Shown here: one piece after another, positions 1-14,002 of the stretch
Position numbering within the stretch: the stretch's first letter is position 1
How the letters are laid out: every line of letters begins with the position of its first letter
NCBI RefSeq assembly: GCF_055900595.2
Contig: NZ_CM148325.1
Direction: 5' to 3' (one strand)
DNA length: 64,000 nucleotides
Position numbers and translations under genes: made by a program
The notes under the pieces: generated by a model
Told to the model about the DNA's origin: nothing
Seen by the model: only the letters and a program-made list of their open reading frames with translations
Database searches by the model: none

Positions 1-2
1 AC

Positions 3-1886
3 ACGCTCAAGATATACCCCACATCTTACATCTACGAAGATAGTTCATTAGGGTATTGGCCCAGTTATTCCTCACTTTCACCTGAAGCACGTGGCGCGTA
101 CCTGAGTTGGCTTACCAGCGACAGATGTGACACTTCTTGCCCAATTGGTTACGTTTTTATTTATCTGTATGGTCTGGAAAGACGGGCGCTTGTTGACAGC
201 AGGGACAGCAATATATCTGACGATGAGTTCTATTCTCTTTTCAAAGAGATCTGCCGTCTCAGATCTGTTTTCAATGAAAACAGATCATTCCGGAACTACT
301 CGTCCCAGTTACTTGAAGCGATGTCCATTCTTCGTCCGAACGAAAATCTTGCAGCAGCTCTCAGCGATGATTCAGAGTTCAGCAATAGCATGCAGTTCAG
401 GTTAATCCTGGCAAAGACTGTTGATGCAGGAGCCCCGGTTCCAGCGGATCTGGCTCTGACGTGGGTGACAAACCATACTGAATACTCATTACGAACCCCC
501 GCCCGCCGCTGTGCGAAAGAATTTGCTGCACTATTTAAACGGCGTTACACCCTTAAATACGGTGAAGGGATGGTAGTGAAGCCGAATAAAGCGCGTCTGC
601 GTTTAGATTACACGCCTGCAAGTCCCAGTTTGAGAGGTATTCGGCTTCCTGTTCCTGACTTGCCTGATCCAAGTGCATTGAAAGGCCCTGTTCAGAAGCT
701 TATGACTCTTGCTGATATATGCACAGGTGAACTGGATGCTTACAGTCGTTACCTTGGTAGAAAAGGCACTTCAGCAAATGATACCGTTGCAATTTTGTTG
801 CTGCCTTCAGAAATCGTTAACGAAAGCGCAGATAAAATATTAAGTGCATTCAAACGCTGGGCTGATGACGCGATCCTCAGTAAGGGGGGAGTAGTTTCAG
901 TTGCTGACTTCTGGTCACACATGAATGCTACCTGTCCGGCAAAGATCAACAAAAAAGAGGCCGACTTGATGCAGGCCTTTGCACAGAAAATGGGGTACTG
1001 CCTGGCTCCTGACCCCTATTACCACCACGTAAAAGCAGATGTCGATGGTGTTCTTGTTTTATTCCCTGCTGGTGAAAGTGGCCGCTTCTCTCCTTCTCCT
1101 GAATTTATCACAGCTGTATTGACGCTCCGATTAGGTTCGGTAGTCGCCTTGATTGACAATTCTTTCGATCAAGCCGAACAGAAAGTGCTTGAGAATGCCA
1201 TCAACAACAATGTCAGCTTCAGCGATGATGAAAAGCGCTCTCTGCACGCATATTTAACGTGGCAGCTTCATACCCCGGCGAATATGACGGGAATGAAAAG
1301 CCGGATTGAATTACTCGGTGCAGCGGAAAAATCAGCTGTGGGTAAGGTTATCGTTAGTGTCGCTTGCTCTGACGGCAGAATTACGCCTGCCGAAATCAAA
1401 CAGCTTGAGAAGATTTATACAAGCCTGGGGTTGGATCCCTCATCCGTATCAAGCAATATCCATCAGCATTCCGTAACTGAAACTGCTCTCGTTTCATCTG
1501 TACCAGCTAATCAGTCGACGGCAGGGTTTACGCTGGATGCCAATGTACTTGCCCGCCACGAATCTGCCACTGATGATGTTCGTAAATTACTGAACTCGAT
1601 TTTCACTGAAGAAGAACCAGAACAACCAGAAAGCGCTCCAGCCTCATTAACCGGGGAAGGGGGGCTTGACTCCGCTCATAGCCAACTTTATCGCAGGTTG
1701 CTGGAGAAAGAACAATGGTCCAGAAAAGAGGCGACAGAGTTGTGTAGTAACTGGAACCTGATGCTCGGCGGTGCGCTTGAGGTGATTAACGATTGGTCCT
1801 ATGCGGTGGTTGATGCACCAGTGCTGGAAGATGCTGATGATCACATTTGGGTTGACCTGGAAATAGCCAAAGAATTAGAGGGTTAG
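3..1886 (+). CDS. TerB-N/TerB-C-like domain protein, 5'-truncated by window edge; first gene of Shango-like defence operon
   Basis: Frame 3 is open from window start with no stop before the annotated Met at 321; upstream translation reads ...YWPSYSSLSPEARGAYLSWL...GYVFIYLYGLERR (TerB-N-like); C-terminal region has VACSDGRITPAEIKQLEKIY (TerB-like). Stop at 1886, 3 nt before next gene. Confidence 0.6.
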   Translation, partial: TLKIYPTSYIYEDSSLGYWPSYSSLSPEARGAYLSWLTSDRCDTSCPIGYVFIYLYGLERRALVDSRDSNISDDEFYSLFKEICRLRSVFNENRSFRNYSSQLLEAMSILRPNENLAAALSDDSEFSNSMQFRLILAKTVDAGAPVPADLALTWVTNHTEYSLRTPARRCAKEFAALFKRRYTLKYGEGMVVKPNKARLRLDYTPASPSLRGIRLPVPDLPDPSALKGPVQKLMTLADICTGELDAYSRYLGRKGTSANDTVAILLLPSEIVNESADKILSAFKRWADDAILSKGGVVSVADFWSHMNATCPAKINKKEADLMQAFAQKMGYCLAPDPYYHHVKADVDGVLVLFPAGESGRFSPSPEFITAVLTLRLGSVVALIDNSFDQAEQKVLENAINNNVSFSDDEKRSLHAYLTWQLHTPANMTGMKSRIELLGAAEKSAVGKVIVSVACSDGRITPAEIKQLEKIYTSLGLDPSSVSSNIHQHSVTETALVSSVPANQSTAGFTLDANVLARHESATDDVRKLLNSIFTEEEPEQPESAPASLTGEGGLDSAHSQLYRRLLEKEQWSRKEATELCSNWNLMLGGALEVINDWSYAVVDAPVLEDADDHIWVDLEIAKELEG

Positions 1887-1889
1887 TGA

Positions 1890-11968: not shown

Positions 11969-12636
11969 AAACCCTTAGATAGTTCTATTGAGGCAAGTAT
12001 GTTATAAATCTGCCTTATCTTTTATAGCATATAAAGATATGTATGCTATATTTTTTTTGAAGAAATTTTTCCAGAAATTACAGTAATACAAGAAATATTA
12101 ACTGGTGTGATTTTTGGATGTTTAATAAGTACAGTGTACTTATATTTTTGTAATAAAGATGAACGCGTCCTTTAGATAAACTGAAAAATATTAAGCATGT
12201 CTCATGTGGTTTTCTGAATCAAAACTCTTTTCAGTCTTTGATTTTTTGTTAAAAACAGGTTTATTACAAGGGTGTTGTTGTGAAATGTGTTTTGGTGTCG
12301 TTGTGATTTTATGGTGATAATGTGAATTTTTATCCTTTCAAGATGGCTCCCTGGACGTTAAATACAGTGGAAATTTATATTAAGATATAAATATAACTAT
12401 TGCGTTATTTAAATTATTGTCTATTACAGCTCCAGTTAATAGAGCCTGAAGTAATTTCTTAGTATTTCATCATAAGCGTTTATCTATCGTCTCTTTCTAA
12501 ATTAACCGGTCGTATTACAAGGTGCTGAATCTGATTAAGGAATGATACTTAGGGGATTATGGCTGACTTAATAATTAGATAACTGATAAATGACTATCAG
12601 GGGGATATCGTTAAGTCAGCCTTTAAAATCAAGCGA

Positions 12637-13827
12637 TTATATAGCTGGTGACTCTTTTCGAAGAGCATCAAGGTAGTCAGCGTACCATTGCATCATTTCT
12701 CGTCTTCCTTCAAGGTAACGAGCATGGTTGTATGTACCACGAATGCTGTTTTTGTCCGTATGTGCAAGTTGCATTTCAATCCATGCACTATTGAATCCTT
12801 GCTCGTGTAGAACAGTACTCATTGTATGACGAAATCCATGCCCGGTAGCTTTTTTGTCATAGCCAATCTTCTTCAAAACCATATTGACGCTTGCATCGCT
12901 GATAGGCCTGTTAACATCATTTCTTCCGGCAAAGATGTATCTGTATCTTCCAGTCAGTTCTTTGAGGATTTGCAGAGACTGGATTGCCTGATCTGACAGA
13001 GGGACGATATGCTCCTTCCTCATTTTCATCCGGGTCGGAGGAACTTCCCATATCTTTTGGGTAAAATCGATCTCACACCATTCCCCCATACGTAATTCTA
13101 CTGTTCTCAGCCCTGTGAGCATCAACAATTTTGTAGCTTCACGGGTTACAATACTGCCGGTGTAGTTTTCGAGTTTGTATAAAAACTCTGGTAGTTCAGG
13201 AGGAAGCAGGAAAGGGTAATGTGTTCGCTTATAGCTTTTCATTGCTATAACCAGATCAGAAGCTGGATTGTATCGTGCCCGACCTGTAACAATGGCATAC
13301 CGAAACACTTCACCACATCGTTGGCGAACTTTATTAGCTAGCTCGCAGGCTCCTCGGCTTTCGATACGCTGAAGAACTGCGAGAAGTTCAAGAGGTTCGA
13401 TTTCACTAATGGGTCTGTTTCCAATGTAGGGAAACACATTATTTTTGAATGCTCTGTCGACATAATCAGCGTAGCTGGCAGACCAGCCTGAAACTTTTGC
13501 GTTGTACCACTCGGTGGCGATTGCGGCAAAAGTTCTTCCTTCGGAAAGGTTTTTCTCAAGATTTTCAGCTTTCTTGACTTCACCGGGATCTTTACCATCG
13601 GCATGTATTTTCTTGGCTTCATCCCGACGTTTGCGAGCTTCAGCCAATGTAATAGTTGGATAGGTGCCAAATGATAGTTTCTTTTCCTTCCCCGCATAGT
13701 GGTACTTCATTCGCCAGTACTTTGAGCCGTTAGGATTGACCTGAAGGTAGAGCCCACCACCATCGGCAATCTTATAAATTTTATCTTTGGGTTTGGCTGT
13801 TTCAACTTGTCGAGCTGTCAGTGGCAT
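12637..13827 (-). CDS. P4-type tyrosine integrase (site-specific recombinase), island integrase at argW
   Basis: Likely start MPLTARQVETAKPKDKIYKIADGGGLYLQV (ORF track begins 9 codons earlier at 13854); catalytic region HGFRHTMSTVLHEQG...RGTYNHARY; lies 175 bp from the 3' end of the tRNA. Confidence 0.85.
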   Translation of the reverse strand: MPLTARQVETAKPKDKIYKIADGGGLYLQVNPNGSKYWRMKYHYAGKEKKLSFGTYPTITLAEARKRRDEAKKIHADGKDPGEVKKAENLEKNLSEGRTFAAIATEWYNAKVSGWSASYADYVDRAFKNNVFPYIGNRPISEIEPLELLAVLQRIESRGACELANKVRQRCGEVFRYAIVTGRARYNPASDLVIAMKSYKRTHYPFLLPPELPEFLYKLENYTGSIVTREATKLLMLTGLRTVELRMGEWCEIDFTQKIWEVPPTRMKMRKEHIVPLSDQAIQSLQILKELTGRYRYIFAGRNDVNRPISDASVNMVLKKIGYDKKATGHGFRHTMSTVLHEQGFNSAWIEMQLAHTDKNSIRGTYNHARYLEGRREMMQWYADYLDALRKESPAI

Positions 13828-14002
13828 CTGGGGGCCTCGCAATAGATTGACCAAGATGTGCCCCTAAATAGGCCCCCAAATGTGACTTGATTTACGTTCC
13901 CCTGAGGAGAATTAAGGCGACTATTTGAGTAACATAAGTAAGGGTATGTGCTGATTATAAAGGCTTTTTGTGGGGTATGGTAGATTTCAGGAGAGGTGTG
14001 CA

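Follow-up and report, generated by a model that had tools for sequence, protein, structure and literature searches.

We analysed a stretch of 64,000 nt from contig NZ_CM148325.1 of RefSeq assembly GCF_055900595.2 (hereafter the window), in which positions 1-14002 are part of a genomic island adjoining argW, the tRNA-Arg(CCT) gene, on an Escherichia coli chromosome. This tRNA gene is the single one called by ARAGORN and Rfam, and a permissive Rfam scan of 1-16500 returned the tRNA and no other non-coding RNA. To its right follow yfdC, mlaA, fadL, fadIJ and sixA. To its left, moving away from argW, lie an integrase gene, an AT-rich spacer, the remnant of a fimbrial regulator gene, an insertion sequence (IS), two uncharacterised genes encoding proteins of 786 and 338 amino acids (aa), and the three genes of the defence system Shango (Table 1).

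Table 1. Features of the island end and of its target site, in window positions
Feature	Position	Strand	Details
sngA, 3' part; TerB-domain gene	1-1886	plus	residues 143-769 of 769 complete in the window
sngB; BrxD-like ATPase, 438 aa	1890-3206	plus	PADLOC 622 bits; Pfam BrxC_BrxD
sngC; DEAD/DEAH-box helicase, 732 aa	3203-5401	plus	PADLOC 922 bits, full length; Pfam DEAD, Helicase_C
terminator-like hairpin, 16-bp stem and T run	5413-5447	plus	closes the Shango operon; consensus scan only
orphan 338-aa gene	5883-6899	plus	three N-terminal hydrophobic helices and a conserved 240-aa C-terminal domain
786-aa candidate defence gene	7543-9903	plus	PD-(D/E)xK nuclease, P-loop NTPase and C-terminal domain
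ISEc16-like IS of the IS3 family	10017-11249	plus	39-nt imperfect inverted repeats; orfA 10080-10379, orfB frameshifted
truncated papB/focB-family fimbrial regulator gene, 51 aa	11216-11371	minus	RefSeq, Pfam PapB, open reading frame listing
AT-rich non-coding spacer, 28% GC, ~1.27 kb	11372-12636		open reading frame listing and Rfam
P4-family tyrosine integrase, intact, 396 aa	12637-13827	minus	NCBIfam, Pfam, alignment to IntS
integrase-proximal island arm	13828-14002		between the integrase start codon and the att core; island-specific
argW, tRNA-Arg(CCT)	14003-14077	minus	integration target, intact after insertion; ARAGORN and Rfam
attachment (att) core TGGTGTCCCCTGCAGGAAT	14003-14021		last 19 nt of argW; second copy at the far end of the island in relatives

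An earlier reading of the locus, made from the letters alone (the sequence-only reading), had named a P4-type integrase. On an identical product Pfam recognises Arm-DNA-bind_3, Phage_int_SAM_3, Phage_int_M and Phage_integrase, and the protein aligns over its full length with IntS of the K-12 element CPS-53 at 48% identity, including the HGFRH and RGxYNH motifs. The match to NCBIfam NF007246 reaches 288 bits, under the cutoff of 434 bits, and so places the protein at the level of the family rather than of the equivalog. The type thus stands, with the limit of the gene at 13827 and not 13854. The AT-rich spacer of the same reading is also present, at 11372-12636 free of open reading frames (ORFs) of at least 60 aa and of Rfam matches; as first drawn, it took in the truncated papB/focB-like ORF that precedes this stretch.

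Boundary, far end and distribution of the island

The boundary of the accessory DNA at argW is real and exact. A genome of the same lineage in which the site is empty is identical to the window over 12,129 bp starting exactly at 14003, and the identity ends at the island arm. Compared with the island-bearing strain FY10, the window differs at 5 positions within 1-14002, nowhere in argW, and at 73 of the 2,078 positions from 14105 to 16182. The core adjoining argW differs by 3.5% between the two strains, and by about 6% slightly further out. Because of this step from 5 to 73 mismatches, the island can be said to be about 99.96% identical between strains whose adjacent core is divergent. Base composition also changes across the boundary, with a GC content of 45.5% in the island and 51.0% in the remainder of the window.

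These comparisons uphold the sequence-only reading in ending core synteny at the 3' end of the tRNA gene, at 14003. Because the 19-bp att core is common to the tRNA gene and the island junction, however, the boundary is a crossover zone and not the single base that had been given.

The att core occurs once within the window. In FY10 a second copy of this 19-mer, TGGTGTCCCCTGCAGGAAT, stands as a direct repeat at a distance of 61,302 bp, where it lies between the gene for a YeeU-family antitoxin and a DUF4942 fragment, followed by cscBKAR, 'dsdX and dsdA; chance matches expected for a 16-mer in that 50-kb FY10 locus number about 0.01. The coordinates of the matches give an island size of about 55 kb in VTB96775v, again with the repeat at its far side, and of about 25 kb in the Shiga toxin-producing E. 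coli (STEC) strain 2013C-4225. The far-end repeat was thus read in the genomes of relatives, the far end of the source genome lying outside the window, as had been supposed for the second att copy. That the island continues past the start of the window, also claimed earlier, is borne out by sngA, the start codon of which lies 423 bp upstream, and by a sibling contig with 3 differences in 16,899 positions. This contig extends 4,118 bases further upstream, all identical to the FY10 island and including the start of sngA.

The junction between yeeU and the distal att copy is found in 167 of the 5,426 complete E. coli genomes in which all distribution counts were made. Because this distal junction is common to so many genomes while the island ranges from about 25 to 61 kb, both of its ends are conserved and its interior is variable. 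The annotated interior in FY10 includes AlpA, a YeeP-like GTPase, Ag43, DUF932, an antirestriction protein, RadC, DUF987 and YeeU, a set that we take to be the backbone of CP4-type islands. Further annotated features are a second autotransporter, two group II introns and numerous IS elements; genes for phage structure, conjugation or packaging are absent from the annotation. The two copies of a single group II intron reverse transcriptase (ltrA, WP_001189123.1; FY10 locus records L001, 2322-3830, and L002, 9141-10649) are each inserted in an IS3-family fragment.

Two contigs with the left flank of the source lineage suggest that the distal part may be arranged differently there. In these contigs cscB and an att copy are followed by a torI-like phage remnant, genes for BTP and LysR and IS copies and, beyond the IS copies, by a stretch of the FY10-type island in inverted orientation.

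Island-bearing genomes are a small minority. At least 80% of window positions 1-14100 is present in 147 genomes (2.7%), the integrase-argW junction in 272 and the segment with the 338-aa and 786-aa genes in 232. Conversely, 1,411 genomes match a synthetic query for the uninterrupted cscB-argW-yfdC junction in one piece. The genes to the left of argW therefore lie outside the conserved neighbourhood, as the sequence-only reading had held, and their order is not part of the core genome of most E. coli. One might still take them for conserved chromosomal genes of this lineage, present without any insertion, and their adjacency to core genes is the one point in favour of doing so. Yet genomes of the same lineage lack them and have cscB next to argW, few complete genomes have them at all, and the region is near-identical across lineages with core differences of 3.5-6%. 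The uninterrupted junctions and the same-lineage empty sites refute this account, to which we give practically no credence.

The host is E. coli, as had been recognised from its gene order, and is not a typical strain of the species. It belongs to a rare lineage: 16 genomes are at least 99% identical to it in the core on the argW side and 10 are at least 99% identical at 42-52 kb, and none of the complete genomes combines the flank of the lineage with the island. The core beside argW (14100-24200) is 90-95% identical to that of 5,380 complete genomes, and the core some 30 kb further on (42000-52000) is 95-99% identical to that of 5,415. Given these two ranges, divergence is locally raised beside the integration hotspot. 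A host from a cryptic clade was considered and is not asserted, the value of 90-95% beside argW being set against 95-99% at 42-52 kb.

Other genomes vary further at this site. Sites scored as empty retain a fragment of a DUF4942 gene (locus record L007, 18469-18903; FY10 L002, 30351-30790) and, beside the att core, a stretch resembling the integrase-proximal island arm (GGTAGATTT...), so that by sequence they appear to bear a scar left by an older member of this island family. Five further argW loci that we inspected hold tandem arrays or alternative occupants. The arrays combine the window's island either with an IS, gtrA and a CPS-53-like integrase or with P22-like phage genes; other loci are occupied by nothing but P22-like prophages, or by a remnant of 3.5 kb in which the integrase is truncated. 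A same-lineage genome, AP025754.1, agrees with the window only from 14054, within argW, and not from 14003 onwards, and a gene for a 2,784-aa MuF/LPD polyvalent protein adjoins the point of divergence. Judged by this position, a different element uses another sublocation of the tRNA gene there.

Defence cargo, insertion sequence and neighbouring genes

On their profile matches, the first three genes are a complete Shango operon. SngA scores 342 bits against its PADLOC model over residues 40-768, and an identical product carries the Pfam domains TerB_N, TerB and TerB_C; RefSeq places its coding sequence at 17477-19786 of FY10 L001. The PADLOC alignment of SngB runs from residue 1 to 438 against positions 1-439 of a 439-position profile. 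The three genes are co-directional, with a 3-bp gap between sngA and sngB and a 4-bp overlap between sngB and sngC. The genes that had earlier been called defence-like are accordingly this full operon together with the two uncharacterised genes. A G/A difference at 727 (GGT versus GAT codon context) is the only one in sngA relative to FY10, and four others make up the five in 14,002 positions.

The Shango system of Pseudomonas aeruginosa PA14 protects against several phages (Johnson et al. 2022/2023), and a citing paper credits Millman et al. with modest inhibition by Shango in E. coli. As to how the system works, membrane surveillance through TerB has been proposed by Millman et al. By analogy with these systems, the copy in the present island would be expected to have anti-phage activity.

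The 786-aa protein has Pfam matches to HSDR_N_2 and HSDR_N at residues 63-131 and a faint match to AAA_22, and it belongs to no NCBIfam family beyond a weak match of its nuclease domain. The residues expected of the nuclease (D69, E83 and K85) and of the Walker A and B motifs (G227, G232, K233 and D304) are invariant in 45 homologues. Its AlphaFold 2 (AF2) model has a predicted local distance difference test score (pLDDT) of 84, with the C-terminal 400 residues confidently modelled, and no tetratricopeptide repeat (TPR)-like sensor was recognised in the C-terminal part. The model has fold matches to ORC/Cdc6, Apaf-1 and, over 300-326 residues, NOD2, NLRP3, NAIP5, AVAST5 and Avs4. Foldseek gives a probability of 1.0 to Avs4, Apaf-1 and CED-4, and ORC/Cdc6, MuB and TnsC fit the core about equally well. 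From this predicted architecture, we take the protein for an Avs-like candidate in which a nuclease effector is joined to a STAND-like switch.

Homologues of the protein form a broad family, with members of about 790 aa that are 45-67% identical across Gamma-, Beta- and Alphaproteobacteria and with 327 clusters at 50% identity (E<=1e-30). In each of the 8 genomic contexts examined, the gene is carried by a mobile element. The neighbours include P4-type integrases, AlpA, a Tn7-like module, a TrwC relaxase and a retron-like reverse transcriptase, as well as a DndB/methyltransferase pair, a UvrD helicase, AAA_15/21 ATPases and a restriction-like nuclease. A scan of IMG/VR for the gene returned only three matches, all to identical E. 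coli loci.

In Dickeya, Pseudomonas and Burkholderia (3 of the 8 contexts), a gene for a 438-aa DUF5623 protein lies 13 bp upstream of the homologue. The arrangement suggests that the two genes may be a two-gene variant of the candidate system. The window contains no remnant of DUF5623, and our literature search found nothing on DUF5623 or on the family of 786-aa nuclease-NTPases. It is possible, and we propose it tentatively as an idea rather less probable than not, that the gene is the E. coli member of an undescribed single-chain anti-phage family. Such a protein would combine three parts, an HsdR_N-type nuclease, a STAND/ORC-like NTPase of compact size and a C-terminal sensor of a new kind, and would act as a miniature Avs that has a DUF5623 partner in some lineages.

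The 338-aa protein matches two PHROG families of unknown function (phrog_23803 and phrog_5814) and no Pfam, PADLOC or NCBIfam family, and its C-terminal domain is 73-91% identical in Salmonella, Pectobacterium and Paraburkholderia/Caballeronia. Its AF2 model is weak (pLDDT 64.7), with no fold match at E<=0.001. Guilt by location makes it a possible defence component. Its gene is solitary elsewhere, in Pectobacterium and Caballeronia, and was seen once beside ccdAB and an AAA_15/21 gene pair. A partnership of the 338-aa and 786-aa genes was considered and rejected, the former being solitary elsewhere and the family of the latter having other neighbours or none.

Elements of the IS3 family such as ISEc16 are about 1.25 kb long and have inverted repeats, an orfA and orfB linked by a programmed frameshift, and a target-site duplication of 3-4 bp. 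The copy in the island is 98% identical to annotated copies of ISEc16, and its orfB, annotated as frameshifted by RefSeq, has an extra frameshift. No target-site duplication is visible at its ends. Because of this extra frameshift and the lack of a visible duplication, the element appears to be a decayed copy, possibly at a deletion junction; the IS3-like element of the sequence-only reading is thus there, in a decayed state. Its right end cuts the papB/focB-like gene, which suggests that an IS-mediated deletion may have joined the defence block to the remnant of the fimbrial regulator and the arm with the integrase.

Two features of the core to the right of argW stand apart from the island. 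An ORF of 399 aa with 32-39% GC (16315-17514, minus strand) is inserted between mlaA and fadL; FY10 lacks it, but this lineage has it and it is found across many assemblies (755 index blocks), and it has no Pfam, PADLOC or NCBIfam match. A yfc-like chaperone-usher fimbrial operon at about 24210-31277 has no megablast match to the FY10 allele and so represents a strongly divergent allele.

Origin of the island

The intact tRNA gene, the adjoining P4-type integrase, the sporadic distribution with empty sites and the distinct composition are all features of a tRNA-borne genomic island. We consider it highly probable that positions 1-14002 are the integrase-proximal end of a CP4-like island that was inserted site-specifically at argW, carries phage-defence cargo and arrived recently by horizontal transfer. 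The P4-family tyrosine integrase, the presumed agent judging from its type and position, would have recombined the island site-specifically into the final 19 nt of argW, regenerating the tRNA gene and leaving a 19-bp direct repeat at the far end. In related genomes the island spans some 25-61 kb, with cargo beside the integrase that probably serves in phage defence. Within this cargo, the 786-aa protein may act in the manner of Avs and NLR proteins, in which case its C-terminal part would be the sensor, NTP would drive oligomerisation of the STAND-like module and the N-terminal PD-(D/E)xK nuclease would be activated. The ISEc16 copy later truncated the fimbrial regulator gene, probably joining the defence block to the integrase arm, and the island would be a recent horizontal acquisition of this rare E. 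coli lineage.

Several points count against this interpretation. The far end, with the distal att copy and the left flank, was read in relatives rather than in the source genome itself, and the distal architecture in the source lineage may differ from that of FY10, to judge from the two rearranged contigs. The FY10 annotation, with neither conjugation nor packaging genes, gives no indication of a transfer route. As for the 786-aa protein, its fold match is strongest for the generic AAA+/STAND core; it has no PADLOC match, including to the Avs and AVAST models, at E<=10, and no sequence match to any solved structure even at E<=10.

The same island could also have arrived when homologous recombination brought in a large stretch of donor DNA, delivered by conjugation or transduction, with one crossover in or beside argW. 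The FY10 island has no annotated transfer machinery, the fully conserved argW would offer a possible short crossover substrate, the adjoining core is unusually divergent, as it would be near a recombination-prone hotspot, and the distal part is rearranged in the same-lineage contigs. However, the sequence switches to that of the lineage exactly at the att core, with no core of donor type on the right side, and a 75-bp tRNA gene is a poor substrate for RecA. Moreover, the island ends at this same 19-bp core in other genomes, and its integrase is intact. We therefore regard this route as unlikely, and insertion by the integrase as the better account of the junction.

Another possibility is that the DNA belongs to a prophage or to a phage satellite, either P4-like or a phage-inducible chromosomal island, rather than to a non-phage genomic island. 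Its integrase is of P4 type, argW hosts CPS-53, P22-like phages and Shiga toxin (Stx) phages, three 'viral' contigs of IMG/VR carry the same 786-aa gene, the 338-aa and 786-aa proteins have PHROG families of their own, and the table of Hochhauser et al. labels the island of Ecol_743 at this site 'Prophage'. Nevertheless, 1-14002 and the 61-kb FY10 annotation contain no capsid, tail, terminase, primase or satellite markers, and none of the core genes of the P4 satellite (alpha primase/helicase, psu, delta, sid and cos) is among the ORFs of 1-14002 or in the FY10 annotation. A size of 61 kb is also far above that of P4-like satellites (about 10-15 kb), and the distal module is the Ag43/YeeU set of CP4-type islands. 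The phage labels are accounted for by true prophages standing in tandem with the island at argW, an arrangement seen in two of the loci described above. A phage or satellite identity thus seems very improbable, and we retain that of a CP4-like island.

Comparison with known islands and defence systems

The island, its site, its type of integrase and Shango are all of kinds already known. The argW-dsdCXA region has long been called highly variable (Moritz & Welch 2006, as cited in PMC3032704), and reviews place PAI-CFT073-argW and SHI-O at argW. Hochhauser et al. 2023 (PMC10121019) list the interval dsdC-yfdC with tRNA_Arg_CCT as defence hotspot 11, detected in 973 genomes and occupied in 376. 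The island of Ecol_743 recorded there spans 78,987 bp; besides DRT type I it carries Shango, whose genes fall close to one end of the range of genes listed. Because a Shango-bearing island at the same hotspot is already in that table, the present island is known in kind. Chromosomal site and tRNA are the same; the survey lists known systems only, without the structure of this island, its att core or the 786-aa and 338-aa genes, and the copy described here is in a rare lineage.

The present case adds one more integrase-driven island, with sharply defined limits, that carries defence systems at a tRNA hotspot; its cargo is near-identical (99.96%) in E. coli lineages that differ by 3.5-6% in the neighbouring core genes. 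For annotation, the exact att core and boundary are of practical value, and the apparent scar of an older island at 'empty' argW sites is a point for caution. The 786-aa gene is the one lead in the island worth a phage-defence experiment; the test would be cheap, as it would for the orphan membrane gene beside it.

Among elements of K-12, CPS-53 (KpLE1) shares with the island its integration at the 3' end of argW, as the sequence-only reading had correctly stated in calling the gene an integration hotspot. Its far end likewise has a short 3' fragment of the tRNA gene, the 15-nt att fragment annotated as pawZ, and the two integrases are related, as described above. CPS-53 is, however, a 10-kb phage remnant with gtr and tail-fibre genes, whereas the island here is much larger, is not of phage type and has other cargo. 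For the CP4-type islands of K-12 (CP4-6 at thrW, CP4-44, and CP4-57 at ssrA), the comparison draws on general knowledge and a table in PMC3032704. By the FY10 annotation, the island shares with them a P4-type integrase beside a tRNA or tmRNA gene, AlpA, the YeeP-like GTPase, Ag43 and the distal module of DUF932, antirestriction, RadC, DUF987 and YeeU genes. It differs from them in its site and cargo, in that no YeeV-type toxin is annotated in FY10, and in an interior rich in IS elements and group II introns.

The Shango genes agree with the system described by Millman et al. 2022 and by Johnson et al. 2022/2023 in P. aeruginosa PA14: the same three components form one operon, with full-length matches to the PADLOC models. 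The SngA protein here is 769 aa long against a model of 528 positions and so contains extra sequence. The 786-aa protein is most like Avs4 and other antiviral STAND NTPases, with an N-terminal PD-(D/E)xK domain followed by a P-loop NTPase of matching predicted fold (the matches include CED-4), and like Avs it is encoded by a single gene in mobile neighbourhoods of defence type. It is, however, half the size of Avs4 and has no recognised TPR-like sensor, and its homologues have an upstream DUF5623 gene in three of the eight contexts, whereas Avs genes do not.

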